DNA of 64,000 bases from Vicinamibacterales bacterium (GTDB lineage: Bacteria > Acidobacteriota > Vicinamibacteria > Vicinamibacterales > JAMQPK01): contig CAWGDY010000011.1 in assembly GCA_963821395.1 (NCBI GenBank), positions 124,769-188,768 of the forward strand, given 5' to 3'. The notes below the pieces were generated by a model. The model was not told the origin of the DNA. It searched no databases and saw nothing but the letters and a program-made list of their open reading frames with translations. Within the stretch, counting starts at the first letter, position 1; each line of letters opens with the position of its first letter. Both the position numbers and the translations under genes were made by a program. This document shows, piece after piece, positions 1-20,597 of the stretch.

Positions 1-1
1 G

Positions 2-766
2 CGCGAGAGCGGCTACGAGCTGAAGCCGCTTCTGAAGCGGATCTTCCTGTCGAAGGACTTCTACAGCCAGCCGTCATACGCCACGCAGATCAAGAGCCCG
101 GTGCACCTGGTCGTCTCCACGTACAAGAAGATGGGCCTCCGCGAGGTGCCGACGATTCCCGACTTCGGAAGGATGACCGGCAGCCTCGGACAGTCGCTCT
201 TCGATCCGCCCAACGTTGCGGGGTGGGCCGGCGGACGCACGTGGATTACCCCGGCGACGCTGCTCCAGCGCGGTAACCTGTTTCGTGAGGTGCTGTTTCC
301 GGACGTCAAAGGCTTCAGGCCGCCCGATCGCGCCATGTCGGCGACCGATGCGAGGGTCGGGGAGCGGCTGGCCAAAGGCATGAACATCACCGAGGCCACG
401 CGGGAAGGCGATGCCGAGTCGAACATGATGGTCGACCGGGAAGAGGACTACAACACGCGCTACGGAGGCTACAAAGGGGCGATCGACGCGTTCGAGCGGA
501 CGAAGTTGATCCCGCGCCGGCAGGCGACGATCGACCTGACGTCGATGGTGCAGGCCGCGCACGCCGACACGGCCGAGAAGGTCGTGGATCACCTGGCGGA
601 CCGGTTTCTGCGTGTAAGGCTCGCCGCAAAAGATCGCGCCGTGCTCGTCGAGTTCTTGCGCGGCAAGCTGGGGACGAACGATGTACGGCCCGGCGAAACG
701 CTGGAGAGCGCGCTGAGAGAGCTGCTGTACCTGGTGCTCAGCACGCCAGAGTATCAACTGGGGTAG
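2..766 (+). CDS. DUF1800 family protein, C-terminal part (5' truncated by window edge)
   Basis: Frame is open from nt 2 (RESGYELKPLLKRIFLSKDFY...IKSPVHLVV). Contains LFDPPNVAGW and ends LVLSTPEYQLG, typical of DUF1800. Lies directly upstream of a DUF1501 gene. Confidence 0.85.
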   Translation, partial: RESGYELKPLLKRIFLSKDFYSQPSYATQIKSPVHLVVSTYKKMGLREVPTIPDFGRMTGSLGQSLFDPPNVAGWAGGRTWITPATLLQRGNLFREVLFPDVKGFRPPDRAMSATDARVGERLAKGMNITEATREGDAESNMMVDREEDYNTRYGGYKGAIDAFERTKLIPRRQATIDLTSMVQAAHADTAEKVVDHLADRFLRVRLAAKDRAVLVEFLRGKLGTNDVRPGETLESALRELLYLVLSTPEYQLG

Positions 767-787
767 CTTTCACCCAAGAGGTGCAAG

Positions 788-2038
788 ATGGCAGGTATCT
801 GCTCCTGTTCGCGCCGTGAATTCCTCATTCGGGGTCTCTACGGGATCGGTGTCGGCGCGTCGCTGCCGATGGTCCTCAACAGGACCTCTGCCGCGCTGGC
901 CGCGCAGGCGCTCGAAGGGACCAGCGTCGAGAAGCACCGCGACCGGATCCTCGTCGTGATCGAGCTGTCCGGCGGCAATGACGGCCTCAACACCGTCATC
1001 CCCTTCGGCGACGCCGCGTACTATCGCGCGCGGCCGAACCTGGCGATCCCGGAGAAGCAGGCCATCACGGTCGCTCCAGGTTTCGGATTCCACCCGTCGA
1101 TGGTTGGCTTCGAACGGCTCTACAAGGACGGCCTGATGGCGGTCGTGCACGGCTGCGGGTACGACCATCCGAGCCTGTCGCACTTTTCATCGATGGGCTT
1201 CTGGCACACAGGCGTGCCCAATGGCGGCGAGCCGCTCGGCTGGCTGGGCCGGTTGGCCGACGCGGGCTACGACCCGGCGGTGCGCAACACGATTGTCAAT
1301 CTGGGGAGCTCTCAATCGCTGGCGGTGCGCAGCCGCAGGCATGCGCCGCTGGTGTTCGACGATCCCGCGCGCTTCCGGCGCGACGGCACCGACACCGAGA
1401 AAGAAGCGCTGGTCGCGTTGAGTCAGTCCCGCACGACGCGCAATGCGACGCTCGAGTTTCTTGCCGCGACCGCGCAGAACGCGACCGAGAGCTCGGACTT
1501 CGTCCGCCAGGCGTCTGCGTCGTATCGCACGCCGGTGGACTACGGGATTGGCGGCGGCCTTGGAGGCAACCTCCAGAGAGTCGCCGCGCTCATCGCCGCG
1601 GGCATGCGCACGCGGCTCTACTACGTGACCTATGCCGGCAATTCGTTCGACACGCACGTGCAGCAGGCCGACCTTCACAGCCGCCTGCTGATGTACACGG
1701 CCGACGGCGTTCGCGGATTCCTCGAGGACATGAAGCGCATCGGCAGGGCAGACGACGTGGCGGTGATGATGTTCACGGAGTTCGGACGCCGGGTCGAAGA
1801 AAACGGCAGCCTGGGTACGGACCATGGCACGGCTACCCCGATGTTCCTCTTCGGCAAGGGTGTGAAGGCAGGCTTGCACGGTCAGCATCCCAGCCTCACC
1901 GATCTGGACGATGGGAACATGAAGATGACCACAGATTTCCGGCGCGTCTACGCGACGGTCATCAAGGAATGGCTCGGTTACGACGACACGCAGGCCGTGC
2001 TCAAGCAGCGTTTCGACACGCTGGGCGTGTTTGCGTAG
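788..2038 (+). CDS. DUF1501 family protein with Tat-like signal
   Basis: SRREFL Tat-like motif; LSGGNDGLNTVIP, FDTH, TEFGRR, GTDHG and TTDFRRVYAT motifs; standard partner of DUF1800. Confidence 0.9.
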   Translation: MAGICSCSRREFLIRGLYGIGVGASLPMVLNRTSAALAAQALEGTSVEKHRDRILVVIELSGGNDGLNTVIPFGDAAYYRARPNLAIPEKQAITVAPGFGFHPSMVGFERLYKDGLMAVVHGCGYDHPSLSHFSSMGFWHTGVPNGGEPLGWLGRLADAGYDPAVRNTIVNLGSSQSLAVRSRRHAPLVFDDPARFRRDGTDTEKEALVALSQSRTTRNATLEFLAATAQNATESSDFVRQASASYRTPVDYGIGGGLGGNLQRVAALIAAGMRTRLYYVTYAGNSFDTHVQQADLHSRLLMYTADGVRGFLEDMKRIGRADDVAVMMFTEFGRRVEENGSLGTDHGTATPMFLFGKGVKAGLHGQHPSLTDLDDGNMKMTTDFRRVYATVIKEWLGYDDTQAVLKQRFDTLGVFA

Positions 2039-2092
2039 TGATCATTCGGCAGCGTGGCACAGCGCTTTAGCGCCATCGTCTGGAGAGCTGAG

Positions 2093-2586
2093 ATGAGAAT
2101 CAGTGTGATCGGCGTGTCTTCGCCGCGCTTGCTTGTGCGCATTCGGACGTATCAGAAAGCGCGGCTCAAGGGGTTCGCCGCATTCAGCCCGCGACCGCAG
2201 CCATTGCGACGGCGGTGTGGCACGGCGACACGCTCTACGTGAGCGGCCAGGTGCCCGATCCGGTGAAGCCGGCCGCGCAAGGATCGCCGGCCGTCTACGC
2301 GCCCGATACGCGGACGCAGTCGGAGAACGTGTTCAGAAAGATAGAGGGCATTCTCAAAGAGCAGGGCCTCGGCATGGCGGATGTCGTCATGATGCACGTC
2401 TACCTCGTGGGCGATCCCGCCATGGGCGGCAAGATGGATTTCGCGGGGATGATGGCGGCCTATACCCAGCATTTCGGATCGGCGGCTCAGCCGAACAAGC
2501 CGGCACGCAGCACCGTGCAGGTGGCGTCGCTGGTCGCCGCAGGCGCGCTGGTCGAGATCGAAGTGATTGCCGTCCGGCCGAAGTGA
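2093..2586 (+). CDS. RidA/YjgF family protein, probably with signal peptide (apparent frameshift near 2115)
   Basis: TLYVSGQ, PARSTVQV and LVEIEVIA motifs in ORF 2215-2586. The frame extends upstream to VFAALACA; the ATG at 2093 is in another frame. Confidence 0.75.
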
Positions 2587-2776
2587 ACCACGTCACGCCA
2601 GCTTGTCGTTGGGACACCGTACGATTCTTGTCGCCGGGTTACAGGATCGTGACACGGCTGGGGTGATTGTCCATCGTGTCATATCGCCTAACGCATTCAT
2701 CATAAAAGAATTAACAGTATTTGGTCGTTTGGCCGAGTCGGCATGGACCATGCTCTCTCGGACGCGCCAATTCGGT

Positions 2777-4518
2777 ATGTCAGATTACAGAAAATTCGAT
2801 CGCGTCGGCCGCCCCGAAGGCAATCTCGTTTCACTTAGTCCGAAGAGCGGCGTTCTCGACGACACGCGTCCCGGCGGGCTCGCGAGCGAGGCCTATTACG
2901 GTCTCCGCGAAAAGCCGTTCGCGCTGGGGTCCGATCCGCGATTCTTCTACCACAGCCAGCCCCACGCCGCGGCGTACGAGGATCTGTTTCAAAGCATCCG
3001 CCGCCACGAAAGCCTCAGCGTGGTGAGCGGAGAGATTGGCACCGGCAAGACGACGCTGTGCCGGGCCGTGCTGCGCAACCTCGATCGCCAGACGTTCAGC
3101 GCCTTCGTGCCCGATCCGTTTGCCTCGCGCGAAGACCTGCTGAAGATGGTGCTCATGGATTTCGGCGTCATCTCGATCGACGATCTCACGGGCAGCCGGT
3201 TGAACGTCGCCACGCGCACCGAGCTCAGCTACCTGCTGTACGAGTTCCTTCGCGGGCTCGCGCCGCTCCAGGCGTTTGCCGTCGTCGTCATCGACGAAGC
3301 ACAGAACCTGTCGCCGTCACTGCTCGAAGAAATCAGGATTCTGTCGGATTGCGACGGTCGGGAGCGTCAGCTCCAGGTCGTGCTCATCGGCCAGCCCGAG
3401 CTGCAGGAGAAGTTGATGCTGCCCGAGCTGCGGCAGGTCGAGCAGCGCATTGCCGTGCGGTGCAAGCTCGAGCCGCTGACGCGAGAAGGGGTTGAGGGAT
3501 ACGTCGCGCACCGCTTGAAGGTCGCCGGCGGCACGCCGGACCGCGTCAGCTTCTCCGCCGATGCGCTGGACGCGCTCTACGATGTGTCGCGCGGCGTGCC
3601 TCGCCTCATCAATCGCATCTGCGATCGCGCGCTGCACCGCGGTCACCTCGAGCGGATGGCGAACATCGACGGACCGACCCTTCGTCAGGCCATCGACGAC
3701 ATCGGGCTGAAGACGAAGCCGATGACGACGGTGGTGACCAAAGTCGAAGAGTCGGCCGGAGTCGAGGAGTCAGCCAGAGTCGAAGAGTCAACCAAAGTCG
3801 AAGAGTCGCGGCCAAAGGCTCAAAGAGCCGGTGCCGCAATCGACGAGCACCTCGACAGAGGCGTCTCATCGATGACTCGCCCGAGACGGTCGATGCGTGG
3901 CTGGACTCCATCCCGAGGCATACGTCCACTCGGAGAAATCCGAATCCCGATGCGATACCGGCTTTACCGCTGCCTCTCGACGAGTTGGGCTTCGACCTTG
4001 ATGATGCCGTCCCCAGAACCTACATGGAACGGCTCGGCCGGCGATGGGCGGTCCGGCTCGGCACGCTCGCATTGTGGATGGGCGCAGTCGCCGCGGTGAT
4101 CGCGTTCATGATGTACGGGTGGGACGTCGCCAGGCGCGAACGGCTCAAGGAGCTCAGGGAGGTTGTCGCGCCGGCACCGCCACCTGCGCCCGTATTCGCA
4201 TTGAAACCGCCGCCGGCACTCCCGGTTCCACCTGTGACGTCGCAGCCGGCGTCGCCACCGCTCGTTCAGCTCGACGGCAGCTACATGATTTACGTCACGC
4301 ATTCGACGATGGAAACGCGGGCGGAGAGTCTCGTCGAGCGGCTTCAGCAGGCGGGTTTTCAGGCGAACCGGATCGCGGTCGTGGCCGGTCGTGTGACCTG
4401 GCATCAGGTCATCGCGGGTCCATATGTCACGCGCGGCAGTGCGGAAGTCGCGCTCCAGAACCTGCACCAGTCTCGGGAATTCCAGGACGCCAGAATCGTC
4501 TTCACTCCACCGCAATAG
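2777..4518 (+). CDS. ExeA-like AAA ATPase with TM segment and C-terminal SPOR domain (frameshifted around 3860-3990)
   Basis: YYGLREKPF, Walker A GEIGTGKT, Walker B IIDEAQ-like (VIDEAQN), GQPEL and GVPRLINRICDRAL in ORF 2567-4099. ORF 3985-4518 has a TM helix and SPOR-like WHQVIAGPY. Confidence 0.8.
3740..3811 (+). repeat. Four 18-nt coding tandem repeats (xVEESx) in the ExeA linker
   Basis: aaagtcgaagagtcggcc / ggagtcgaggagtcagcc / agagtcgaagagtcaacc / aaagtcgaagagtcgcgg. Confidence 0.8.
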
Positions 4519-4540
4519 CGGCGGAGTGGCGCGGCAGCGT

Positions 4541-5513
4541 TCATTTTCCCTCTGCCGCCTTCTCCTGCACGCGGGCGCCACTCAGAAGGTTGACCATGCC
4601 GTAGTTCCCCTCGTGGCAGGCGTACTCGTAGATCTGCTCGTCGGTGTGCTGCATCGGAATCGACGTGGTCCACCGTTTCGTGAACGTGGTGGGGTCGTCG
4701 ATCGTGAACTCGTATCGGACCGTTTCGGCGTTGATGCGCGTGAAGCGCTCGATGAGGTGCAGGCCGTCCGTCGATCCGCGATAGTTGGCCTTGTCGGCGA
4801 AAGTTCGTCGTATCGACGACGAGCGTATCGCCCTCCCATTTCCCCCGCGAATCGCCGAACCACTGGCGGATGTTCTTGCCGATGTGCGGCTGCCTGTCGA
4901 GCGGGATGATTCGCGCGTCGTGAATCATCTCGTGCAGGATCACCACGTAACCGGGTGTCTGCAGAATCTGGTAGTTGTTGTTGTAGGGCCCGGGGATCAT
5001 CGGCAGCCCGCGCGTGATGCACCGCTCCCACAAGCTCCGGTCCTGCCACGAGTCGTACCCGCGGGCCGCGCGCTCCGTTGCGCGCTTCTGGCCCTCCGGC
5101 GTCAGGGCCGGCACCCGCCCGTCGGGTGGGTCGACGACCAGAGACGTCTGCCGGGTGGAGGCCACCTTGGTCCCCCGGTCCCACCAGAAGTCGTTGTAGG
5201 CGAGCGCGACGTCGGCATCGGTACCCGCGCCGTCGCGGCGATCCTGGTTCTGGGTTTTCCGAAAGGTCTCCTCCGCAGCGGCCGCTTCCTGCTCAGTCAA
5301 CTGCGCTTTGTCTGCGAGCGCAACGGGCCTTTCGAACGGCGTAATCGTGGCGATCGACCACACGCCCTGCAGGTCGGGATCGCCCCAGGGCGTGCGCGCC
5401 GCCGTACGCGTTTCCACGTTCCTCGACTGGCCGGCGACCGAGGCCGATGCGAGCGCGGCCAGGGCAAGCGCCGCCGCGAGAACGTTACTTGGTCTTCTTT
5501 CGAAGATGGCCAT
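4541..5513 (-). CDS. Exported 'RTPWGDPDLQGVW' family protein, paralog 1 (frameshift near 4795)
   Basis: Signal peptide, ERC, HEMIHDARIIPLD and GDSRGKWEGDTLVVDT. The +1 frame continues to EYACHEGNY and stops at 4541. Highly similar to 6906-7862. Confidence 0.8.
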
Positions 5514-6312
5514 ACATCAGCTCTTCCACGAATTCGACGCATTTGTATTCGAGCAGCTGCGCGTTCTTCTCGACACGGCGATAGAGCGGCATGCTCATCT
5601 TCCAGGGACGCGTAAACACCTTGGGGTCCTCGATGGTGGCTTCGTACTGCAACACGTCGCGGCTGAGCGGCGTGTAGCGCTCGACGACGTGCAGCGCTTC
5701 GCTGTGAAAATTTCCGGCGCGATCGAACCACGTCTCGCCGTTGAACGCGTTCACATCGACGACGAGCGTGTCGCCTTCCCATCGGCCGAGCGACCAGCCC
5801 ATCCACGTATCGGCCGGGCTTTCATCCTTGCTGTTCATGTAGATCGTGCGGCTTGCGCTGGCGAACTCGTACGCCATCAGGACGTGGGTAGGCGTCTGCA
5901 CGATCTGAAACGGATAGGGCATGTAGGTGGCACGCGGCACGCCCGGCATGTAGCACTTGATCTCCGGATCGAGCTTCAGCCAGTTCGCGGCGTTCTCCTT
6001 CTTCTTCGCCGCGGCCCATGGCTGGTAGGGGATCTCGTCCCCCTCGACCACACCGAGGCCGGCCGGCACGCTGAAGGCGGCGCCGAGCTCGAGAACCGGA
6101 CCCTGCCGCGCGGCGTGTCCCTGAATGTCCCAGTTGGCGGAGTTATTGGCCTGCCAGATGCCGTTGAGGTCGGGCTTGCCGTCCTTGAATGGCGAGCGCG
6201 GCGCCTTGTAGCCCGCGGGCGCCTGTGCTGCCGGCGCCACGGCGAACGAAAGGACCGCAAGCCCGACGGCTGCGCTCGCCGCAACTATCGTGCGTCTGAT
6301 CCTGGTGTGCAT
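5485..6312 (-). CDS. Exported 'DGKPDLNGIWQ' family protein, paralog 2
   Basis: Signal peptide; DPEIKC, GWSLGRWEGDTLVVDV, TIEDPKVFTRPW and EYKCVE motifs. Confidence 0.8.
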   Translation of the reverse strand: MHTRIRRTIVAASAAVGLAVLSFAVAPAAQAPAGYKAPRSPFKDGKPDLNGIWQANNSANWDIQGHAARQGPVLELGAAFSVPAGLGVVEGDEIPYQPWAAAKKKENAANWLKLDPEIKCYMPGVPRATYMPYPFQIVQTPTHVLMAYEFASASRTIYMNSKDESPADTWMGWSLGRWEGDTLVVDVNAFNGETWFDRAGNFHSEALHVVERYTPLSRDVLQYEATIEDPKVFTRPWKMSMPLYRRVEKNAQLLEYKCVEFVEELMYGHLRKKTK

Positions 6313-6333
6313 CGCGGAGATCTCCTGATCACG

Positions 6334-6406
6334 GTCCGGCTGACCACCTTCGCCGAGGCTACGGTGGTCCGCCGGAGCTTTAGCGAAGGCGGAAGCCGGA
6401 CACTAC
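6334..6406 (-). repeat. GTAG-type REP palindrome with a 50-bp double-hairpin insert in its loop
   Basis: gtccggctg [6343-6392: accaccttcgccgaggctacggtggt ccgccggagctttagcgaaggcgg] aagccggacactac. Compare the uninterrupted copy at 60992-61015. Confidence 0.75.
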
Positions 6407-6409
6407 GCT

Positions 6410-6889
6410 TCATGCCATCTGCCATCTGCCATCTGCCATTTGCCATGTGCCATGACAGGTTTCTATTTGACGGTGCTCAGGCGGTTGCTGCGGATCGCCC
6501 GGCGCGCCGGTGCCGGTCGAGCCGATGAACAGCTTGCGGCCGTCCGGCAGCGTGATGTCTCTGCCGTTGGCTTTCAGCGTCCCATCCTTCGCCTGATATC
6601 CATCGACCACGATCGCCGTCCCGGCCGGCAGCGAGTTCTTGTTCACTCCGCGACGGAACAGGGTGTTGGGCGTGCCGCCTTCGATCATCCACTGTTCGGT
6701 GGTCCCGTTCGGCTGCTTGACGTCGATGTGAATCCACGCGTGTGGGTTGATCCACTCGACTTTGGTGACCGTGCCTTCCAGCTTGATCGGCTTCTTGGCG
6801 TCGAACTCTGCCGCGAATGCATGGTGCGCGCGCACGGTCATGGTGGCGCACACGAGACTCACGACAGCCAGGGCAAACAGCGTTCGCAT
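6410..6889 (-). CDS. DUF6152 family exported protein (true stop possibly near 6463)
   Basis: Signal peptide ending VRA, then HHAFAAEFD, GTVTKVEWINPHAWIHIDV, W.IEG and ITLPDGRKL. The C-terminal tail reads through the heptamer array. Confidence 0.85.
   Translation of the reverse strand: MRTLFALAVVSLVCATMTVRAHHAFAAEFDAKKPIKLEGTVTKVEWINPHAWIHIDVKQPNGTTEQWMIEGGTPNTLFRRGVNKNSLPAGTAIVVDGYQAKDGTLKANGRDITLPDGRKLFIGSTGTGAPGDPQQPPEHRQIETCHGTWQMADGRWQMA
6414..6455. repeat. Heptamer tandem array (gccatct)x6, degenerate
   Basis: gccatct gccatct gccatct gccattt gccatgt gccatga. Confidence 0.9.
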
Positions 6890-6905
6890 GAATCCTCCGG
6901 TCGGG

Positions 6906-7862
6906 TTATTTGTCTTCCGCTCGGGCCCCTTTGAGCAGGTTCGTCATGCCGTAATTTCCTTCGTGGCACGCGTACTCGAAGATGGGCCCGTCGGTCTTCG
7001 TCATCGGCACAGCCGCCGTCCACGATCGGGTGAACGACTCGGGATCGTCGATCGTGAACTGGTAGTCGAGTGTATCCGGATCGACGCGCGTGAACCGCTC
7101 GACGATCTTCAGGTTCGCGCTCGAGCCGCGAAAAATGGTCTTGTCGGTGAAATTCGTCGTCGTGACGATGAGCGTATTGCCGTCCCATCGGCCGCGCGAG
7201 TCTCCCATCCACTGGCGGATGGCCTGCGGTGCATGAGGACGGCCGTCGAGTGGAATGATTCGCACGTCGTGGATCATCTCGATGAGAATCGCGACGTAGC
7301 CGGGCGCCTGAAGAATCTGATAGTTGTTGTTGTAGCCGCCGGGAACCATGGGCGGACCGGCCGTCGGCCACAAGATGCACCGTTCGATGAGGCTGCGATC
7401 TTCCGGACCGTCGGCGGGGCTGCGGCGCCGCGCCTCCGCGCGTGCGTCGGCCCGGCTTTGCGCCGCCGGCGTCAGCGCCGGAACCCGGCCATCGGGTGGA
7501 TCCGTCACGAGCGAAGTGCGCCGCGTACCGACGACCTTCGTGCCGCGGTCGTACCAGAACTGGTTGTACGCCCGCCCGAGGTCGGCCTCGGTTCCACCCC
7601 CGCGATTGTCGGCGTCTCGCGCCTGGTTGGTCTGCCTCTCGAACTCGGCGGCTTCTTCCTGGGTGAGGACCGCCTTGCCGGACAGGTTTGCCGGGCGCTC
7701 GAACGGTGTCACGGTCGCGTTGGTCCAGAGTCCCTGCAGATCGGGGTCGCCCCATGGGGTTCGAGGCACGCTGCGCGGCGCAGGGGCCTGGGCGATCGCC
7801 GTGGCCACCGCCAGCGACACACCCGCGACCGTCAGCGTCACGTACCGGAGCCGGTGGTGCAT
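6906..7862 (-). CDS. Exported 'RTPWGDPDLQGLW' family protein, paralog 3
   Basis: Intact ORF with signal peptide; ERC, EMIHD, GDSRGRWDGNTL and EYACHEGNY motifs. Confidence 0.85.
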   Translation of the reverse strand: MHHRLRYVTLTVAGVSLAVATAIAQAPAPRSVPRTPWGDPDLQGLWTNATVTPFERPANLSGKAVLTQEEAAEFERQTNQARDADNRGGGTEADLGRAYNQFWYDRGTKVVGTRRTSLVTDPPDGRVPALTPAAQSRADARAEARRRSPADGPEDRSLIERCILWPTAGPPMVPGGYNNNYQILQAPGYVAILIEMIHDVRIIPLDGRPHAPQAIRQWMGDSRGRWDGNTLIVTTTNFTDKTIFRGSSANLKIVERFTRVDPDTLDYQFTIDDPESFTRSWTAAVPMTKTDGPIFEYACHEGNYGMTNLLKGARAEDK

Positions 7863-7940
7863 GAGGGACCTCGAAGCGCAAGATAGACCCTTCAAATCAA
7901 GGTGTCAATTGATTCGGTAAGGTTTAGACTTCGGGACTCA

Positions 7941-9089
7941 ATGGACCCTCATATGAAGCTTGGCGGTGCCGCCGCGGTCACCCTTACCCTCGCGATGAGC
8001 GTCGCGATTGCCGCGCAGACGGCCGCGCAGACCAACCCCCCGATGTCCGACCAGGTCTTCAAGAACGTCCAGGTGCTCAAAGGCATTCCCGTGGACGATT
8101 TCCTCGACACCATGGGCATCATGTCGGCGGCCCTGGGGTTCGATTGCGTGGAATGTCACGTGAATGCGGGCACCGACAACGTGAACTGGCAGTTCGACAC
8201 CGATAAGAAGCGCACGGCCCGGCGCATGACGTTGATGGTGGCGGCCATCAACAAGACCAACTTCGGCGGACGGCAGATGGTGACCTGCTGGACGTGCCAT
8301 CGCGGCCGGGATATTCCGGTGACGATGCCGCCGATCGACACGGTGTACGGCGAGGCGGTGGTGCTGCCCGACGAGATCGTCTCCGAACCGTTTCCCGGGG
8401 AGCCGTCGGTCGACCAGATTCTCGACAAGTATCTTCAGGCAATCGGCGGCGCCGCGCGGCTGGCAGCGGTGACCAGTTTCACCGCAACCGGCACGAGCCA
8501 GGGCTTCCGGGGTTTCGGCGGCGGAGGTCAGGTGCAGATCTACGCAAAGGCGCCCGATCAGCGTGCGACGATCATCAAGTTTGCCGAGAACATCGGACGG
8601 CAGGATGCCATACGCCTCTTCGACGGCCGGAACGGGTGGGTGTCGGCGCCGCTGTCCGTCGTGCCGCAATATGCCCTGGCTGGCAGCGAGCTCGACGGGG
8701 CACGCATCGACGCGCTGTTGTCGTTTCCGGCCCAGATAAAGACGGCGCTGACCCAGCTGCGCGTGGGTGCACCTGACTACATCGACAGCCGCGAGGTGCA
8801 CGTCATCCAGGGGAACGGTTCGCGCGGGTCCGTGGCCACGTTGTATTTCGACAAAGAGTCGGGTCTGCTCGTGCGGATGGTCCGCTTTGGCTCGTCGCCG
8901 ATTGGCCGGGCGCCCACACAGGTGGACTATTCCGACTATCGCGACGTGCCAGGCGCCGGCATCAAGATGCCGTTCCGCTGGACGTTCGGATGGCTCAATG
9001 GCCGCGACACCATCGAGTTGAAAGAGGTTCGGGTGAACGTGCCTATCGACGCGTGGGTGCTTCAGTCGAAAGCAGTAGCGCAGGGGTAG
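7941..9089 (+). CDS. Diheme c-type cytochrome (photosynthetic RC cytochrome c subunit-like N-domain) fused to a LolA-like beta domain
   Basis: Signal peptide; FKNVQVLKG, CVECH, KRTARRM and CWTCHRG; C-terminal LYFDKESGLLVR...DYSDYRDV...PF. Confidence 0.75.
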   Translation: MDPHMKLGGAAAVTLTLAMSVAIAAQTAAQTNPPMSDQVFKNVQVLKGIPVDDFLDTMGIMSAALGFDCVECHVNAGTDNVNWQFDTDKKRTARRMTLMVAAINKTNFGGRQMVTCWTCHRGRDIPVTMPPIDTVYGEAVVLPDEIVSEPFPGEPSVDQILDKYLQAIGGAARLAAVTSFTATGTSQGFRGFGGGGQVQIYAKAPDQRATIIKFAENIGRQDAIRLFDGRNGWVSAPLSVVPQYALAGSELDGARIDALLSFPAQIKTALTQLRVGAPDYIDSREVHVIQGNGSRGSVATLYFDKESGLLVRMVRFGSSPIGRAPTQVDYSDYRDVPGAGIKMPFRWTFGWLNGRDTIELKEVRVNVPIDAWVLQSKAVAQG

Positions 9090-9112
9090 AGACAGTAGAA
9101 AGCTACGAGACA

Positions 9113-9135
9113 GTAGCGCAGGGCTTTAGCCCTGC
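9113..9135 (+). repeat. GTAG-type REP palindrome
   Basis: gtagcgcagggctttagccctgc. Confidence 0.75.
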
Positions 9136-9183
9136 CGAAGGGGACTGGGCAACTGGAAACTGACTGGAAGGTCGGAGTACGAA

Positions 9184-10219
9184 ATGAAAAGCTTCCTCGC
9201 CGCTTCTATCGCACTATCGATTCTGTTGTTCCCGATTTCCCTCGCGAGTCAGGCGCCGAAGTGGTCGCCGCCGCTGACGCCGGACGGGAAGCCCGACCTG
9301 CAGGGCGTGTGGCTGAACCAGAGCGCGACGCCCCTCGAGAGGCCGAAAGAACTGGCCGGTCGTGAATTCCTGACCGACGAGGAAGTGGCCGAGTTCAAGA
9401 GGCGGGCCGCGCGGCTCTTCGACGTCACCACAGACAGCGATTTTCCGGGCGGAGACAATTTCTTTCTCGCCCTGCTCGCCAACCCCGATAAATACGGCAC
9501 CGGCACGTCGGGGACAAGCAATGCGACGGTGATGATCGAACGGACCATCGACAACCGCACGTCGCTCATCGTTGACCCGCCCGACGGCAGGATCCCTCCG
9601 ATGACGCCGGACGGGTCGGCGAGATTGGCAAGAACGCCGCCGCCTACGGCAGCCGGAGGACCACCTGCAGCTGGACCTGAAGATCTCAGCAACGCGATGC
9701 GTTGCATCACCTATGGCATGCCACGGATTGGCAGGCAGAACATCAACTCCGCAGGGCCGCTGGGCTATTACCAGATCCTGCAAACGCCCGGCTATCTCAC
9801 CATCACGCTCGAGGCCATCCACGAAACGCGCGTGATTCCCCTGGACGGACGCCCGCATCTCCCGCAGGGGCTCACGATGTGGAGCGGCGACTCGCGCGGC
9901 CGGTGGGAAGGGAACACGCTCGTGGTCGATACGACCAACTTCTCGCCGAAGAGCAACTTCATGGGATCGTCGAGCGAGCCTGCACATCGTCGAGCGGTTC
10001 ACTCGCGTGGCCGCCGACATGCTCCAGTACGACGTGACGATCGACGATCAGACGACATGGACGAAGCCGTGGACCGTCTCGATTCGCATGAAGCAATCGC
10101 AGGACAAGCTCTACGAGTACGCCTGCCACGAAGGCAACTACGTGACGATGGAAGGCATTCTTGGTGCGGCGCGCGCGGACGAGCGGGCGATGGAAGACGG
10201 CGCTAACCGGCCGAAATAA
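9184..10219 (+). CDS. Exported 'DGKPDLQGVW' family protein, paralog 4 (frameshift near 9975)
   Basis: Signal peptide; MRC, EAIHETRVIPLD and GDSRGRWEGNTL. The C-terminus (EYACHEGNY) lies in ORF 10007-10219. Confidence 0.8.
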
Positions 10220-11460
10220 TCAGTACGTGAAGTCGATCGTGCTGGTCGTCCCTGCCGCCACGCGCACCGTCTGCGTGGTCGTGCCGAAGCGTTCGTGCCA
10301 CGCCTGCACCGTGTAAGTGCCCTCCGGAACGTTGTCGATGGTGAACGTGCCAGCCGGATTGCTGACGGCGAAGTACGGGTGGCTGACCACTCCGACGAAC
10401 GACGTCATCCACCTGTGCACATCGCAGGTGACGCGCAACATGACCTCAGGTGTTTTCAGGTGCAGCTCCTGGACGAGGCCCGCCTTCGGCTGGCTGATGT
10501 TGAAGCCGTTGTCGCGTGCGGACTGCCCATGAACGTTATGGAGCACTTCGTCGCTGTTTCTGATTTGAATCCGCTGCCCGACGCGCGCCCCGACGACCCT
10601 GGGGACGTACATGCACGCACGCTGATCGATCGTCACCGCTTCAGACGGAATCGGTGAAGACGGGAAGTCGCCCTGCAGGCTGACGAAGACATTGGCCAGA
10701 CTGCCGTCTGAGGTCGCCGTCACGACCTCCTGCACGGGACGCTTGCCGGCGTTGAGCGTCGCGCACACCGGGTCCATTCCCATCCTGATGACCGCGTTGC
10801 CTGGCACAGCGCCCTTCACCCGAACGTGGCCCGTGATGACGCCGCCTTTGGCAGCAACGGGCGCAGGTGTTGCCGCTGCACTCGGGGTGGGGATGGCCGC
10901 CTCCACCTTCCACGCCGCGGCGCTCTCGGGCGGGTACCAGTAATGCCGGTGGCACGCTTCGCACGCGCCCTCGATTTTTTCGCCGGCGTCGAACAGCCCT
11001 TTCGCGCTCCTCGCGTTGGCCGCATTCAGGGCCGGGACGGCGGCATCCTGCAGACCATCGACCAGGCCGCCCCAGGTGGCGGGGTCGTCCGCAATCAGCT
11101 TCTGGATGGTTTCGGGATGGAGCTCGATGCGGGGGTTTTCGGACTTTTCTCCCGGCTTGGCGACGAGGCGGCCGGGAACGCGCAGCAGATTGGTCGCTTC
11201 CACCAGCTGGACGGCGCTCCGCTGAACGGCCAGCCATTCCTCATCGGTTCGCGGCTCCCGCTCTTCGGTGCCCGACAGGCTGACGATCGTCGCGACGGCG
11301 TTCCACAGGACGTCGGCCTCCGGATCGACGATCGAGAGCATGATGTCTTTGACCGTTGCGGTCGGCCTGAACTTGGCTCCGGTTTGGGTTCCTCGCGCGA
11401 GCAGCTGACGGCTGATATCGACGTGATGCCCACGACCAGCACGGACAGTAAGCGACGCAT
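10220..11460 (-). CDS. Lipoprotein: cytochrome c'-like domain + cupredoxin-like domain + carboxypeptidase-regulatory-like domain (frameshift near 11350-11370)
   Basis: Lipobox AVSC in ORF 11095-11460. ORF 10220-11341 has a helical domain ending in CEACH, then HNVH...CDVHRWM and GTFTIDNVPEGTYTVQAWHE. Confidence 0.75.
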
Positions 11461-11499
11461 GTCAGGGGAGTCTCTGCCGCGCGAGCAGAGGATGTCAAG

Positions 11500-11636
11500 T
11501 TAGGTGCGTTAGGTGCGTTGGATGCGAGAGGTGCGAGAGGTGCGAGAGGTGCGAGAGGTGCGAGAGGTGCGAGAACCCGCACCCGTCGCACCTGACGCAC
11601 CCAACGCACCCAACGCACCTAGCGTGTCGCACCTAG
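11500..11636. repeat. Inverted pair of 9-mer tandem arrays ((ag/tt)aggtgcg)n ... (cgcacc-NNN)n
   Basis: Left arm ttaggtgcg x2, ttggatgcg, agaggtgcg x5; right arm cgcacccgt, cgcacctga, cgcacccaa x2, cgcacctag. The right end overlaps the TonB receptor stop codon. Confidence 0.9.
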
Positions 11637-14600
11637 AAGGTGACTCTGGCTCCGATCTGTATGTCGCGCGGCTTCATGACGGTGCTCGAATCGATGTTGT
11701 TGAGTTTCATGAAGTTCGCGTTATTCGGCGTCAACACCATGTTGCCGACACCGAAGAGCGTGTAGTTGGTCGCGTTCAGCGCCTCGATGCGCACCTGCAC
11801 GCGAACCCGGTCGCCCACGGCGAAGTTCTTCGTCACGCCGAGATCGAGGAGGTGGTGTTCCATGAACCGGACGTCCGGCAGCGTCGTCGGGAACTTGCGC
11901 AGGTTCGCCTGGCCGAGCTGGATTTCAGTCGCCGTGAACGTCACCGGCTGCCCGGCTGCGTTGCGGAACGCCTGGCCGTTCATGGTGTAGAAGCAGCTGA
12001 TGTCGATGATCGGAATGTCGACGCCATGGATCTGATTGCCCGAGCCGCCCCACTGCGATTTCAGCTGCTTGGGATCGCCGCATTGCGGGTCATAGTAGGT
12101 GTTCTGGTTGAACACCAGCGGCGAGCCGCTCTGCCATTCGTACTTCGTGCTGAACTGCCACCCGCCGAGGATGGCGTCCGTGACGGCATTCCATCCGTCG
12201 CCGTAGCGGCGTCCGTGCCCGAAGGGCAGCTCGGCCACGCTGGCGAGCGTGATGCGATGCGGCCGGTCGGTCGCACCGATACGATCTTCGAGCTCGTCCC
12301 ACGGATTGAGCGGGGCCACTTGTTCCGTGAGGTGCGACCACGTGTAGGACGTCATCAGCATCAGGCCGTTGGTGAAGCGCTTGTCGAGCCTGAAAATCGC
12401 GCCGTTGTACATGTTCGAGCCGCGCGCCGTTTCCATGCAGAACGTCGTGGCTGTGCCTGTCGCGCAAGGGGCGCCCGACGTCTCGAACTGCGGATAGGCA
12501 TAGAGCAGACGGCGACGCGCGATCGTGGCGCCATTGGTCGCGGGCGAGTCGGGTGTCAGCCCTTGGAATGGATTCGAGACGGTTTGTGTCAGGAATGTTT
12601 CCGCGTCGTTGTCGCGAATCAGGCTCTGCGTGCGGTACTGCTGGGGCACGAAGTTCAGCGGCTCGAGAATCGCCTGATTCGAGCCGTGCTGGCCGATGTA
12701 GGACACCTCGAACAGCATTTCCCAGGGCAGCTGCCGCTCGACGCCGATACTGAATCGCCAGAATTCAGGGTTCACGCGATCGGCATTCCAGATGTTGCCT
12801 GGCGCGTTTCCGAGATTGGTCGAGAGACCCTGTGACGATCCCACCGGTTGTACGAGCTGGCCGCTCGGAACCGGATTGCTCAGGTTGGCCTGGAACGTCA
12901 AGCCCTGGTCGCTCGTCACGGGCACCGGCGTGTTGCGCGAGTACCCGATCTGATTGATGCCTGAGATGAGTCCCGGCACGCCCTGCAGCTGGAAGGGCGC
13001 GATGAATTTGCCGGTGCCACCACGCAGGACGGTCCGGTCGTCGATCTTGAACGAGAAGCCCGCTCGAGGCTGGAAGTTGCTCAAGTCCGCGTTCCATGCG
13101 TGAGACTGATCGCCAGACAGATACGTGTACCCGCCCAGCACGCGGAACTGGCTGGCCGGCCCCGGCACGCCCGCCGGCGGACTGGCCGCGAAGCGCGCCT
13201 GCGCCGCCGCCTCAATCGGATTCGTCGTCGTCAGATCGAACGGCCCGATGTTGCGATTGTCGCTCTCGGTCATGCCGAGCTCGAGGTCGTAGCGCACACC
13301 GAGATTGAGCGTCAGCCGGTCGCTTACGCGCCAGTCGTCGTGCACGAAGAACCCATGGCTGATGACCGTCGTGTCGTATTCGGGACGGAGCTCGATGAAG
13401 GACGTGGTATTGGGCAGGCCGAGCAGGAACGACGCGATCCCCTGACCGTACTGAGCAGTGGCCGCAGCCGTCGCGCGTGTATACGAGCTGTCGAAGGCGT
13501 ACGCGCCGCCGCGCCAGCCCAGGTTGGTCTCCTTCTGCCGCAGGCTCCGCCAGTCGTAGCCGAACTTCATCGTGTGGCCGCCCGTCGTCTTGGTGACGGT
13601 GGCCGCGAACTGCACGTTGTAGAACGGCTGCGTGCGTCCGTTGTTGAAGCCGCTCTGCTGCGCGCCGAGCGTGGCGACGCGGCCCGCGGTCGTCGCGTTC
13701 GACGACTCGATGCTGTAGCGGGGCAGCTGCTCGAAGTCGCCGAACAGCCCGAGCGTGGAAGGGGAGTAGCCGAGGGTGGCGAGGTCGAGATTGTAGAGAG
13801 GGAACAGGTCGTCGTTGAACCGCAGCCAGCTGGCTTTCAGGTCGAGCACCATGCTCTGCGAGAGAACCGCCGTGTGGCCACCTGCCCAATTGTAGTTGAA
13901 GCGGTCAGTCGATCCGCGGGTGATTTCCACGCCGTTCACCGCGCCGGCGAAGTTGAAGCGTTCCTCGCGTCGGAAGTTACGAAGGAATCGCCCGTAGGTC
14001 TTCTGCGACGACTGTCCACTGGTGATCGATCCGCGTCATCGCGAAGTTGTACGCGTATGTCCACGGCTGTTCGATGAAGAAGTTCGACGAGAGGTCTGCT
14101 GCTGGCGTAGCGTTGGGCGCAGGAAAGTAGCTTCAGGATGTTTGCCGCGATCGGGTTGATGCGATTGGCCGGAATGACGTTGCCGGGAAATGGCTGGCGT
14201 GTCACGACGCCGTTGACCAGCTGGGCGGTAGCTGGATCGTAGATCTGTACGCCAAGCGGCAGCAGTTCCCCGAAATCGCCCGACCGCATGCGCGAGGTCG
14301 GAACCGAGGTCGTCAGCGCCTCGACCGTGTCGTCCTGGAGCTTCTCGTACGAGAACATGAAGAACGTCTTGTTCTTGAAGATGGGCCCCGAGACCATACC
14401 GCTGAAGCGGTTGTAGTCGCGCGGCTGCTTGCTCGTGCCCAGGCGATTGGACGCGAAGAGGCTGGCCGATCGCGAGTCGTCACGGTTGTAGAACGACAGG
14501 GCGCCATGGAGCGAGTTGGTGCCGCTCTTGAGCGCCAGGTTCACGCTGCCGGCGCCGGTATGCCCGATCTGGGCGTCGTAGCCGGCGGTCTCGACCTTGA

Positions 14601-15267
14601 ACTCCTCAATGGCGTCGGAGGGCGGCTGGATGCCGACGCGAGCCTGCGAGACGACGTTGCTCGAACCGTCAATCGTGAACTCGCTGTTCAGCGTGCCGGT
14701 GACGGCCGCGCCGCGCAGGTTGTCGTTGTCCATGGGCCGCTGCAGGGCGTACGAGCGCTCGAACGTGGCGCCGGCGACCAGTCGTGTCAGCCCGTAGGCC
14801 GTGCCGTCGCCCAGCGGGATCTCGCTGATGAGCTTGCTGTCGATCACCTGGCCCATCGAGGCCGTGCTCGTCTCGAGCTGCACCGTGTCGGCCACGACCG
14901 ACACCTGCTCTGTCACGCCCGCCGGCTGCAACGTGATGTCGAGCTGCAGACGCTCGCCGACGCGGACCTGCACGGTGGGATGATCCTTGGTCTGAAACCC
15001 GCTGAGCTCCGCCGTCACGCGGTACGACCCGGGCAGCAGGAACAGCGCTGCATATTGACCGGTGTCGTTGGTCACCAGCGACGTGGTGCTGTTGGTGCCG
15101 TTGTTGACGACCGTCACCGTGACGCCGGGCAGGGCGCCGCCGGATGAATCCACGATCAGGCCGGCGATCGATCCGCGCGACTCCTGCGCGATCGCCGTCG
15201 AGCCATACAGAGCCACCGCACAGACGACGCCCGCAATGCCAAGCCAATGCCGGATTGTTCCTGTCAT
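11633..15267 (-). CDS. TonB-dependent receptor with N-terminal carboxypeptidase-regulatory-like domain (Oar-like); frameshifts near 14130 and 14010
   Basis: DSSGGALPGVTVT N-domain, AIEEFKVET plug, DDWRVSDRLTLNLGVRYD, C-terminal PRDIQIGARVTF. Split between ORFs 13936-15267 and 11633-13939. Confidence 0.85.
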
Positions 15268-15283
15268 GTTGGTACCTCCCTAC

Positions 15284-16888
15284 TCATTTGCTCATCGACG
15301 GATCGATCGCGCGAATCAGCACGCTCATGTTCCGAATGAACGCCTCGATGGAAATCCCCGTCAGCGTCTTGTCCGGATACGGCGAGGTATCGGATTCATC
15401 GCCGACGTGTGTCGTTCCGTAGCTGCCCGGCGCCACATTCGTCGAACCGTCGCCCTTGTAGGGGTGGCTGTTGTATCCCAGCGGTGCAAGCCAGTACCCC
15501 TCCTTGTTGAGCGAGGCGATCGAACTGGCCGCTGTGACGCCCGGCGCCGGCATCAGCGCGAAGTACTTCGGCAGCGGCAGCACGCCGTGCCCGGCCACGA
15601 GCGGCGACCCCTTGGTCGCCTGTTCCGGCGTCATCGCGCGGGCGTCGGCGTAGAGCTTTCGCAGCGCCGCGATGTTGATCGGCCGGAAGGAGCTGTAGTG
15701 GCCCAGCGTATCCTTCGGATTGCTGTCCCAGTAGTAGCGGCCGTTGACGACGTTCGAACCTTCACGGTGGATGTACAACGGCTTGTTGGTGCCCACCTCG
15801 ATGAAGGTGGCGTGCGTGCGGCCGGCCGGCGCCACGCCCTGCGGCAGCGCGATCGATTCCAGCCAGTCGATGGCTTCCGGTACGCGCGCCAGAAATTTCG
15901 TGTCGCCCGTGAGCCGGTAGAACTGCACCATCAGCTCGAGGTTGCGCGCGGTGGTGTGCGTCGCCAGCGATCGCGGTTCGTAGGTGCGGGCCTGCACCGG
16001 CTTCAGATCGAGCGTGTACTGCAGCGACCAGCCGGGCTGCGGCGGCCCCTGCTGGGTAACGATGAACGCGTTCATGCCGCGAAGGATCGGATCGAGCAGC
16101 CTCGCATCGCCGAGCGTCTGGTAGCACATCACCAGAAAATCGATGTTCTCGCCCGCGACATCGTCGTTGAACGTCGGATACGCGGTGTAGTCGGGAAGGC
16201 CGCGCGTCGAATGCTCGGCGACGCGTGGATACCGTTGAGGCCACGCGCCGATCGGATACTGGCTGTCGAGCACGAATTGGATGGCCTTGTCGAGAGACGG
16301 CCGGTATTTCGGATCGCGCTTCTCGAGATACAGGCGCAGCAGGAATTTCGCCGACTCGGCGGTGCCGGCATCGTCGAACGTGGCGTTGCCCCAGTAGTGC
16401 TGAAACTCCTCGAGACGCCAGCCGTTTTTTCCGACCGTCTCGTACCACTCCTTGAGCGACCGCTCGCCGGCGAAGTCGGCGACGTAATTCCACCCTCCGG
16501 CTGGATGCTGGGCCCAGATGAGCGCACCGGCGACCTGCTCGGCCGCTTGAAAGTAGAAGTTGTCGCCGGTCGCGTGGTACGCGTCCAGATACAGATGACC
16601 CACGGTGGCGGTGCCCGGCGGCTGGATCCAGATCATCGTCTCGCGGGCTTCCATCTCTCCCCACCGCCGGGACAAGTCCGGCAGGTAGTTCCAGACGTAG
16701 CCACCCTTGTACGCGAGCTTCTCCGTCATGAAGGTGGTGGCGCGCTTCATCGTGGCCATCACTTCGTCGCGCGCCTCGCGGGGTGGCGCCTGCGCCATGG
16801 CACCCGCGCCAGAAAGCGCGAGCGCCGTCAGCACTGCGGCGAGCCGGATCCGTCTGGCGTTCTGATGGATCATCGTTTCTTCCTTCAT
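15284..16888 (-). CDS. pelA: Pectate lyase, polysaccharide lyase family 10
   Basis: Signal peptide; ATFDDAGT, GAWPQRYP, TFNDD, WSLQY and ARTYEP motifs typical of PL10. Confidence 0.8.
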   Translation of the reverse strand: MKEETMIHQNARRIRLAAVLTALALSGAGAMAQAPPREARDEVMATMKRATTFMTEKLAYKGGYVWNYLPDLSRRWGEMEARETMIWIQPPGTATVGHLYLDAYHATGDNFYFQAAEQVAGALIWAQHPAGGWNYVADFAGERSLKEWYETVGKNGWRLEEFQHYWGNATFDDAGTAESAKFLLRLYLEKRDPKYRPSLDKAIQFVLDSQYPIGAWPQRYPRVAEHSTRGLPDYTAYPTFNDDVAGENIDFLVMCYQTLGDARLLDPILRGMNAFIVTQQGPPQPGWSLQYTLDLKPVQARTYEPRSLATHTTARNLELMVQFYRLTGDTKFLARVPEAIDWLESIALPQGVAPAGRTHATFIEVGTNKPLYIHREGSNVVNGRYYWDSNPKDTLGHYSSFRPINIAALRKLYADARAMTPEQATKGSPLVAGHGVLPLPKYFALMPAPGVTAASSIASLNKEGYWLAPLGYNSHPYKGDGSTNVAPGSYGTTHVGDESDTSPYPDKTLTGISIEAFIRNMSVLIRAIDPSMSK

Positions 16889-18098: not shown

Positions 18099-18242
18099 TG
18101 AACCATTAAGGGACTAAATCGCCAAAATGAACGGCCCGCAGGAGAGCCAGAACGAAACAAGCCCGTTAATAACGGTGTTTAATTTGTCTCAGTTGAGGAC
18201 TATATACGCCCCTCGAGGCCCAGGTGTCAAGTGAACTCCCGA

Positions 18243-18265
18243 GCGGGGCTGAAGCCCCGCCCTAC
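18243..18265 (-). repeat. GTAG-type REP palindrome
   Basis: Reverse strand reads gtagggcggggcttcagccccgc. Confidence 0.75.
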
Positions 18266-18295
18266 GAGGTGGTGCGCGTATGCTAGGTGAGGTTG

Positions 18296-18472
18296 ATGGA
18301 CGCTGAGCGCTGGGCGCGGGTCAAGGAACTCTTCCACGCCGCGCTCGAGCGCGATCCCACCCAGCGCGATGCCTTCCTGGCCGAGGCCTGCCGTGACGAC
18401 GCCGATCCCCAGGGGCTTCGCACGGAGCTCACCGAAGCCCGCCGCGCCGTGGCGCGCCTTCGAGGGAACTGA
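18296..18472 (+). CDS. 58-aa mini-protein or pseudogene: N-terminal helical module fused to the C-terminal helix of the ECF-associated Ser/Thr kinases
   Basis: [29 protein letters not shown] matches the kinase N-termini (DWARVKEIFHGALERE). [23 protein letters not shown] matches the kinase C-termini ([21 protein letters not shown]). Confidence 0.7.
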
Positions 18473-18485
18473 GAATAGAGATTCG

Positions 18486-20456: not shown

Positions 20457-20581
20457 GGACTACTAGGGATTAGGGATTGGGGATTGGCAGAAAATGCCGT
20501 ACAGCCGGCGAACCGACAAAGCAGAAAATTCCCACGCCACGTACCGCTGAACGAAACTGTTCAACTTCGCGTGCATCCAGT

Positions 20582-20597
20582 TGGCATGATGGGTGCT
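20582..20597 (+). promoter_or_regulatory. Putative sigma54 (-24/-12) promoter
   Basis: TGGCAT-GATGG-GTGCT; the ATG at 20609 falls near the expected +1. Confidence 0.5.

Follow-up and report, generated by a model that had tools for sequence, protein, structure and literature searches.

A conserved trio of short and long calycin-like proteins and a DUF6152 protein at a Vicinamibacterales locus: a candidate periplasmic metal-centred module

Positions 4541-11460 of a 64,000-nucleotide stretch of DNA from a Vicinamibacterales bacterium (assembly GCA_963821395.1, contig CAWGDY010000011.1, positions 124,769 to 188,768 of the forward strand; the whole stretch is called the window here) carry seven consecutive genes, g1 to g7, all of which encode exported proteins (Table 1). 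Their translated N-termini resemble signal peptides, and that of g7 is lipoprotein-like (...AVSC). A previous sequence-only reading of this DNA had proposed that four of the proteins are interchangeable paralogs which share a set of motifs, pair with the DUF6152 protein encoded by g3 and pass electrons through a cytochrome and a cupredoxin. The translations confirmed all seven genes and the motifs listed for the paralogs. Analysis of related loci showed that the core of the locus is a three-gene module, consisting of a short paralog, a long paralog and DUF6152.

Table 1. Genes at positions 4541-11460 of the window
Gene	Coordinates	Strand	Product	Remarks
g1	4541-5513	-	Long paralog, predicted calycin-like exported protein	N-terminal part 4801-5513; C-terminal part 4541-4798 in another frame
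g2	5485-6312	-	Short paralog, 275 aa	PDLNGIW, IKC, EYKC
g3	6410-6889	-	DUF6152 protein	PF19649
g4	6906-7895	-	Long paralog, intact; 329 aa in the ORF list	
g5	7902-9089	+	Exported dihaem c-type cytochrome with a C-terminal domain of about 245 aa	
g6	9184-10219	+	Long paralog	N-terminal part 9184-9978; C-terminal part 9980-10219
g7	10220-11460	-	Three-part lipoprotein	Cytochrome c'-like, cupredoxin-like and CarboxypepD_reg parts

Of the four paralogs in the window, g2 is short, whereas g1, g4 and g6 are long. Each has a first-strand motif (PDLQGVW in g1 and g6, PDLQGLW in g4, PDLNGIW in g2), an xC motif (ERC in g1 and g4, IKC in g2, MRC in g6), a GxSxGxWxGxTL motif (GDSRGKWEGDTL in g1, GWSLGRWEGDTL in g2, GDSRGRWDGNTL in g4 and GDSRGRWEGNTL in g6) and a terminal EYxC, which reads EYACHEGNY in the long paralogs and EYKC in g2. 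The long paralogs also carry ExxH[D/E] (EMIHD in g1 and g4, EAIHE in g6), and in g2 the EMIHD and CHEGN motifs are replaced by WFDRAGNFHS. A HMMER search with g4 as query recovered g1 (E 5.6e-83 and 9.2e-30), g6 (E 1.5e-55 and 2.3e-16) and g2 (E 4.1e-18 and 9.4e-4), confirming that the four proteins are paralogs. The true start of g4 is likely Met12, at position 7862, because its database homologs are 318 aa long. The promoter and terminator scan gave no sites above those of shuffled sequences, the one promoter-like site near g4 (7908-7880) being at chance level, and no riboswitch or other family was matched in an Rfam scan of window positions 1-20000 at E up to 0.1.

The association of the paralogs with DUF6152 was determined in 80 loci, the best 80 of 605 DUF6152-encoding stretches (one genome per species) picked by DUF6152 motif patterns. 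These loci came from Vicinamibacterales, Bryobacterales, Terriglobia, Holophagales and Gemmatimonadota metagenome-assembled genomes and from those of Steroidobacter, Pseudomonadales, Burkholderiaceae and Rhodospirillaceae. A paralog was present in 79 of the 80, lying within 400 nt of DUF6152 in 76 and on the same strand in 73. Both the short and the long type were found within 3 kb in 57 loci, and the commonest order, short-long-DUF6152, occurred in 24. Among 28 Acidobacteriota DUF6152 loci taken with 1.5-kb flanks, 27 contained a paralog match; the exception (L041) had a weak DUF6152 match. At the level of whole genomes, DUF6152 was detected in 18 of 201 Acidobacteriota genomes and the paralog family also in 18, with 17 holding both, although these genomes are not independent because they are spread over only about six families. 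One of the two exceptions had only a weak DUF6152 match (G146) and the other only paralogs (G164). In G002 and G185 the sole two paralog matches flank the sole DUF6152 gene, and a paralog is also adjacent to DUF6152 in G055; these three genomes have only two or three paralog matches. These statistics agree with the proposed pairing of the PDLxGxW proteins with DUF6152. On the other hand, the existence of two fixed subtypes in a shared order indicates that the paralogs are not interchangeable, contrary to what had been suggested.

The g3 product was assigned to DUF6152 with 123.8 bits against a gathering cut-off of 27 (PF19649, E 3.1e-36). Its signal peptide is predicted to be cut between VRA and HH, and its tail beyond about residue 135 is not conserved. 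In 30 DUF6152 sequences selected with the Pfam model, residues H22, H23, P49 and H50 were invariant and D30 was conserved in 90% or more. A small residue precedes the HH at position -1 of DUF6152 signal peptides, being Ala in 90 and Gly in 4 of the 96 DUF6152 open reading frames (ORFs) from the 80 loci; counts of HH itself over these loci are circular because the loci were picked with HH-containing patterns. Since HH directly follows the signal peptide, mature DUF6152 is expected to begin with His-His. In mature numbering, this N-terminal His-His together with Asp9 and His29 looks like a metal site. CopC, the lytic polysaccharide monooxygenases and YcnI have an N-terminal His 'brace', and by analogy with N-terminal-His sites a metal held by DUF6152 may be copper.

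The predicted structure of DUF6152 (predicted local distance difference test score, pLDDT, 84.8) has an oligonucleotide/oligosaccharide-binding (OB) fold. The closest match was SSB 4dam, with a Z score of 8.8 and a root mean square deviation (rmsd) of 2.7 over 82 residues, and Foldseek likewise returned OB domains, from LysRS and from SSB. Among 67 longer DUF6152 proteins, fifteen (within P0410-P0432, about 290 aa) are fused to a C-terminal Metal_resist domain of the CpxP/Spy/ZraP-like type (PF13801). The fusion was confirmed in P0410 (PF13801 E 2.9e-9), in which HH again stands right after the signal peptide. Other apparent fusions were discarded. Long frames joining DUF6152 to paralogs were high-GC read-through, each DUF6152 having its own signal peptide, and P0439 (DUF6152 with DUF6644) contained garbled stretches and looks like a gene called across a frameshift. 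P0398 consists of cytochrome c, short paralog and DUF6152 parts, the last of which is preceded by a garbled stretch; the cytochrome c-short paralog part of this protein was taken as genuine.

Genes near DUF6152 were surveyed in the 80 loci and in 20 larger contexts, where 137 of 142 gene calls, all but the five largest, were scanned. DUF6644 membrane proteins (for instance at L020 9538-10513 and L023 6332-6817) are recurrent neighbours of DUF6152, with at least 51 genes, usually in pairs, in at least 27 of the 80 loci (among L093-L172). They have four helices, one invariant His per chain, one invariant Lys and a DLRLLG motif, and match DUF2214 weakly (E 0.035). In the genome of the window itself DUF6644 adjoins DUF6152 on contigs C57 and C7, and the g4 HMMER search found no paralog match near the C7 pair. 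About 20 genes for beta-propellers of the pyrroloquinoline quinone (PQQ) type, some with a cytochrome c domain, were also found in the 80 loci, and a PepSY_TM protein is encoded in the L065 cluster. The counts of DUF6644, PQQ-type and c'-like genes are rough lower bounds, because the GC3-based gene caller misses genes in lower-GC loci such as L156, L158, L159 and L168 and single-linkage clustering merged c'-like cytochromes with PQQ propellers.

These features could also be explained by metal trafficking or buffering without catalysis, a possible but somewhat unlikely alternative in our judgement. DUF6152 would then be a metallochaperone or sink like CusF, CopC or ZraP, and Cu, Zn or Ni would be passed to DUF6644 or kept off its targets. 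The calycin-like proteins would be accessory, like ZinT, and the cytochromes and cupredoxin would merely set the redox state of the metal. The invariant His-His and the conserved Asp and His of mature DUF6152, the Metal_resist fusions, the DUF6644 genes beside DUF6152 and the PepSY_TM protein are all in keeping with such a role. However, DUF6152 is not detectably related to CusF (PF11604), since its alignment with the CusF of the same genome by hhalign gave a probability of 2.7%. Nor is DUF6644 a detectable CopD: the CopD model (PF05425), which in a control search was found in 6 of 14 known genomes, matched nothing at E up to 0.01 when searched against the whole genome of the window, which holds at least three DUF6644-type genes. 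No metal-responsive regulator was seen, the Rfam scan of window positions 1-20000 gave no riboswitch, and trafficking leaves unexplained why two distinct barrel proteins accompany DUF6152 in 57 of the 80 loci.

The paralog family is large. In a 90%-identity protein collection at least 8000 proteins matched g4 at E 0.001 (all scored candidates passed), and an exhaustive search of 50%-identity representatives gave 18,885 matches at E up to 0.001, 8,602 at 1e-10 and 1,857 at 1e-30. In whole genomes, where matches were counted at E up to 1e-10 and are not exact gene counts, there were at least 128 in G044 (3.9 Mb; 150 of 205 candidates scored), at least 122 in G110 (150 of 245 candidates scored), 72 in G073, 33 in G186 and 32 in G196. 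The Vicinamibacterales genomes G044, G110 and G122 (3.9-6.5 Mb) each hold about 100 or more paralog matches, many of them arrayed in tandem, along with 14-23 matches to DUF6152. At E up to 0.1, neither Pfam nor NCBIfam had a family that matched g2, g4 or either part of g1 or g6, the one exception being a sub-threshold DUF2961 match in the C-terminal part of g1 (E 0.066). Searching g4 against PDB sequences at E up to 10 gave no match, and its 30 nearest Atlas clusters are unnamed, none having a common Pfam family.

An 88-sequence alignment showed G136, C173, E206, G231, E266, E307, C310 and E312 to be invariant and G55, R172, R212 and H311 to be conserved in 90% or more; the two invariant Cys of the long paralogs may form a disulfide. 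In an alignment of the short subfamily represented by g2, the invariant residues were C120, C258, E211, R212 and H203. The AF2 model of g4 (pLDDT 86.0, predicted template modelling score 0.81) consists of a strand at 55-58 after PDLQG, a helical insertion of about 130 residues, eight strands between 191 and 300 and a C-terminal helix, in agreement with the closed antiparallel barrel of 8-10 strands by which calycins are recognized. The top Foldseek matches of this model were SAHS and retinol-binding proteins (E 1.7e-3 and above). In a search independent of Foldseek the best match was nanoKAZ (5b0u), with Z 8.7 and an rmsd of 3.2 over 117 residues, and CRBP4 (at Z 8.2), a bile-acid-binding protein (at 7.9) and nitrobindin 3ia8 (at 6.8) were also matched. 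Every top match was a calycin, with Z scores of 8-9, here and for DUF6152, only middling on the scale of the tool. The barrel alignments begin at residues 42-52 of g4, and PDLxGxW supplies the first strand. G-x-W is the first-strand signature of lipocalins, and PDLxGxW is found in all four paralogs; no curated lipocalin or FABP model in Pfam or NCBIfam matched them at E up to 0.1. The paralogs are predicted to be calycin (FABP/lipocalin-like) closed antiparallel beta-barrels, and at the level of prediction this ligand-binding fold favours the earlier suggestion that they bind a substrate.

The predicted barrel is the feature which the paralogs would share with the lipocalins, FABP/CRBP, nitrobindin, YceI and ZinT. 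The PDLxGxW strand corresponds to the lipocalin G-x-W, and bacterial lipocalins, YceI and ZinT are exported like the paralogs. In contrast to these calycins, the paralogs match no calycin-family profile of Pfam or NCBIfam and g4 matches no PDB sequence. They have in addition the long helical insertion after the first strand and the C-terminal helix, and invariant positions that include a Cys pair and several Glu, and they occur as a fixed short/long pair with a predicted OB-fold partner.

A second alternative is that the calycin barrels shuttle hydrophobic small molecules (a quinone, an isoprenoid, a lipid or a soil aromatic), as YceI and lipocalins do, with DUF6152 acting as a structural lid or docking subunit and the redox proteins acting on the ligand or being mere neighbours. 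We consider it rather unlikely, although several observations point in its direction. The top fold matches are all lipid-, retinoid-, bile-acid- or haem-binding calycins, and the family has expanded enormously, its genes frequently lying in tandem, a pattern seen in ligand-binding families. One paralog (P0195) is fused to Lipocalin_5, and Lipocalin_5 genes are present in L057 and L121. The C-terminal domain of g5, moreover, resembles lipoprotein-sorting (LolA-like) clusters, which is a lead only. Against shuttling, invariant E206, E266, E307 and E312 together with H311, R172 and R212 (90% or more) would be odd in a lipid carrier, and the invariant His-His of DUF6152 is left unexplained.

The arrangement of the module is reminiscent of enterobacterial YceI and YceJ. 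YceI is a periplasmic calycin-like protein encoded with the cytochrome b561 YceJ. In both cases the neighbour of a calycin-like binder is a membrane protein of four helices in which His is conserved, and a layout of this kind may, by analogy, link a lipid or quinone ligand to electron transfer. The module differs from YceI/YceJ in that DUF6644 has one invariant His per chain, two barrels and an OB protein are present, and the cytochromes are c-type and periplasmic.

Physical association of the trio was modelled by a three-chain fold of a long paralog, a short paralog and DUF6152 as the scored partner, from alignments built for this analysis, for which the calibration is only rough. The score was 0.50 (runs 0.47, 0.63 and 0.50), compared with 0.00 for the best of three controls, in one of which the long paralog had been swapped out. 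Among solved complexes 58 of 80 attain the pass mark, against 2 of 110 among mismatched pairs, and the band at 0.60 or under contains 7 of the 80 solved complexes and both passing mismatches. Contacts agreed by at least 56% between runs and the pLDDT of the DUF6152 partner was at least 72. The interface envisaged between paralog and DUF6152 scored above the controls, and this weak pass lends weak support to binding; we take it as mild support because the gene order provides a strong prior.

A hint that the module is expressed came from the soil metatranscriptome X18, in which contigs with 90% likeness or more covered g2, g3, g4, g5 and g6, DNA carry-over being possible. One contig of 378 letters (6663-7041) spans the junction of g3 and g4. 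Coverage was scant or nil over 10325-11500.

The two remaining genes, g5 and g7, encode putative electron carriers. The g5 protein contains two CxxCH motifs. Its N-terminal domain (about residues 33-140) matched positions 32-140 of the 310 of PF02276 (E 3.1e-13) and PDB 7c52_C (E 1.3e-10). With a part-profile match and two CxxCH motifs g5 lacks the full four-haem PufC architecture, and it scored below the cut-offs of NF040706 (56.1 bits against 150) and of NF033196 c_type_nonphoto (62.1 against 70). We conclude from these profile matches that g5 has a PufC-like dihaem domain and is not a PufC. Its C-terminal domain had no Pfam match and is possibly LolA-like, as its nearest Atlas clusters carry the automatic name 'outer membrane lipoprotein-sorting protein family' (score 0.90, a lead only). 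Cytochromes of the g5 type were present in 27 of 81 genomes of the order at E up to 1e-10 and, as an optional partner, in 5 of the 80 DUF6152 loci. None was found in the 20 larger DUF6152 contexts. Among eight full-length g5 homologs of the order, from four families (L074-L081), seven have a DUF6152 gene within 1.5 kb and the eighth has paralogs only.

The helical N-terminal domain of g7 matched the cytochrome c' family PF01322 weakly, its 16.0 bits (E 0.024) falling below the cut-off of 26.5, and contains one CEACH, at residues 127-131 of the 373-aa ORF. Small c'-like cytochromes resembling this domain are encoded in DUF6152 loci L065, L070 and L071, and the homolog in L071 matched PF01322 with E 0.001. 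The middle domain has LHNVH followed by CDVHRWM, matching the His...Cys-x2-His-x2-Met ligand pattern of type-1 copper cupredoxins, and in 22 aligned g7 homologs H124, H127, C162, H165 and M168 were invariant. The C-terminal part of g7 had 2510 homologs, many of them named 'plastocyanin' by JGI. In PDB its profile reached a blue (type 1) copper protein (5fc9) only at E 0.24, and no cupredoxin Pfam family matched the middle domain at E up to 0.1. The CarboxypepD_reg domain was identified with PF13620 (E 2.4e-9). A g7-like protein, again an optional partner, was encoded in 11 of the 80 DUF6152 loci.

Among the earlier domain assignments, those of DUF6152 and of the dihaem cytochrome hold, and 'LolA-like' and 'cupredoxin' are plausible, with no profile confirming them. 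A route for electrons specifically through g5 and g7, as had been suggested, fits poorly with how seldom these two types occur at DUF6152 loci and fits better with the proximity of DUF6152 to seven of the eight full-length g5 homologs. Other redox parts, namely c'-like cytochromes, PQQ-type propellers and DUF6644 pairs, do recur.

Three of the seven genes, g1, g6 and g7, are frameshifted in the assembly, a feature absent from the sequence-only reading. There is one surplus base near 4799 in g1 and one near 9976-9979 in g6, and in g7 the frame switches near 11370, where similarity to contig C39 stops. This 16.4-kb contig from the same bin (locus L024) is 95-96% identical to window positions 3732-20887 and contains intact counterparts of g1, g6 and g7; it does not contain the TonB-dependent-like gene or some downstream genes. 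It is probably derived from a second strain binned together with the first (bin contamination 3.24%) rather than from a true duplication. Contigs from the soil metagenome runs X1, X2 and X3 skip a letter at each of 4799 and 9976, and those of the RNA run X18 also skip one letter at 9976, in g6. Given the intact C39 copies and the intact X1, X2 and X3 contigs at the sites in g1 and g6, we read the lesions, that of g7 more tentatively, as errors of the assembly or as changes peculiar to this strain. The frameshifts could instead be genuine mutations in a decaying, non-functional duplicate, which would be compatible with any function of the module. That three of seven genes are out of frame while the bin holds an intact, closely similar copy would fit such decay. 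We nevertheless think it doubtful, as C39 may belong to a second strain, relatives from three soil runs are intact at 4799 and 9976, and a further split gene in the window points to assembly indels.

This further gene (11633-15267, minus strand) encodes a TonB-dependent-like outer-membrane protein (CarboxypepD_reg and OMP_b-brl_4) in two ORFs that meet at 13936-13939, and its split is likely another assembly indel. At 2567-4518 on the plus strand, an AAA_22/AAA_16 ATPase ORF (2567-4099) overlaps a SPOR-domain ORF in another frame (3985-4518), and the two may be one more frameshifted gene. At the 3' end of g3 (6408-6476) soil-metagenome relatives show several deletions of 1-3 bases. The C39 copy of g3 ends in ...PPAK, in place of which the window copy has a 24-residue tail, and this end of g3 may also be mis-assembled. 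Between g7 and the outer-membrane gene (11500-11620), runs of VREVREV, LAPLAPLAP and NAPNAP in different frames are due to a short tandem DNA repeat.

Taken together, the reading we tentatively prefer is that the locus encodes a periplasmic metal-centred redox or binding module. Its core would be the conserved periplasmic trio of g2 (short calycin-like), g4 (long calycin-like) and g3 (DUF6152, OB-fold), with g1 and g6 as extra long paralogs at this locus and g5 and g7 as attached haem and copper electron carriers. Cleavage of the signal peptide would expose the N-terminal His-His of DUF6152. The protein could then hold a metal, most likely copper, through its N-terminal His, the second His, Asp9 and His29, and would dock onto the long calycin protein. 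Inside the calycin barrels there would be a small substrate or cofactor, probably a hydrophobic one. Electrons would enter or leave through the c-type cytochromes or the cupredoxin-like domain and, in other genomes, through PQQ-type dehydrogenases or DUF6644 membrane proteins. A more specific version, which we regard as distinctly less probable, is that the trio represents a new class of periplasmic metalloenzyme in which copper or another metal on the N-terminal His-His of the OB subunit sits above the mouth of a substrate-selecting calycin barrel.

Several observations weigh against a metal-centred module. Most paralogs occur without DUF6152, as in G044 with about 128 paralog and 16 DUF6152 matches, so the barrel family must also act alone. 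The neighbours are otherwise mixed, including sulfatases, peptidases and beta-lactamase-like genes, and the g5 and g7 types are optional. The candidate copper handlers also offer only partial parallels. Like CopC, PCuAC, CusF and YcnI, DUF6152 is a small exported beta-protein with His at or near the mature N-terminus, its position beside DUF6644 recalls that of CopC beside CopD in that both adjoin small multi-helix membrane proteins, and CusF is a small OB-like barrel. In contrast to those proteins, DUF6152 has no Met-rich motif and is tied to calycin-like proteins, and its predicted fold is an SSB-like OB fold, not the CopC sandwich. The failed CusF and CopD comparisons, the assignment of copper by analogy, the circular HH counts, the middling fold scores, the weak pass of the three-chain model and the frameshifts in this copy count on the same side.

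The weakest explanation, a chance juxtaposition of an abundant paralog array with unrelated exported proteins, is very improbable: at about 128 matches per 3.9 Mb a random 3-4 kb would hold a paralog roughly one time in seven (an estimate), but the near-universal presence of a paralog at DUF6152 loci, the genomes sharing both families, the adjacency in the three genomes with two or three paralog matches and the conserved gene order and strand all speak against it. For single neighbours, such as pectate-lyase-like or ROK genes, chance is possible.

Many-copy, exported and paired families are also found in Planctomycetota and Acidobacteriota, namely the DUF1501/DUF1800 pair and the pairing of DUF1552 with DUF1592/1588/1585/1587. 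Both kinds of pair are present in the window and related loci, and their folds and families are unrelated to the module, two of whose three parts have no Pfam model. In the window a DUF1800/DUF1501 pair and a protein that combines DUF1592/1588/1587/1585/1595 with a cytochrome c domain lie at 2-2038 and 37391-39880; these are further expanded exported families to which, likewise, no function is assigned.

A full-text literature search returned no paper on DUF6152, on DUF6644, on 'histidine brace' with 'OB-fold' or on gene family expansion in Vicinamibacter, and we know of no described system with the short/long calycin and DUF6152 architecture. We regard it as a novel kind of module made of known folds. 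A single Vicinamibacterales genome can hold about 70-130 matches to the paralog family, for which no entry in Pfam, NCBIfam or the literature was found, and unnamed families of this sort conceal much of the extracytoplasmic activity of abundant soil bacteria. The present analysis links the family with DUF6152 as parts of a fixed, multi-phylum module, gives predicted folds for both and proposes a His-His site. Should the metal-centred redox interpretation fail, the module would remain a clean target for structural work and ligand screening. If it is true, the module would represent a new architecture in periplasmic metallobiology and provide a handle on gene expansion in Acidobacteriota, and if the trio is a metalloenzyme class, the expansion of the barrels would correspond to a repertoire of oxidative enzymes or binders, each with its own substrate among the organic compounds of soil.

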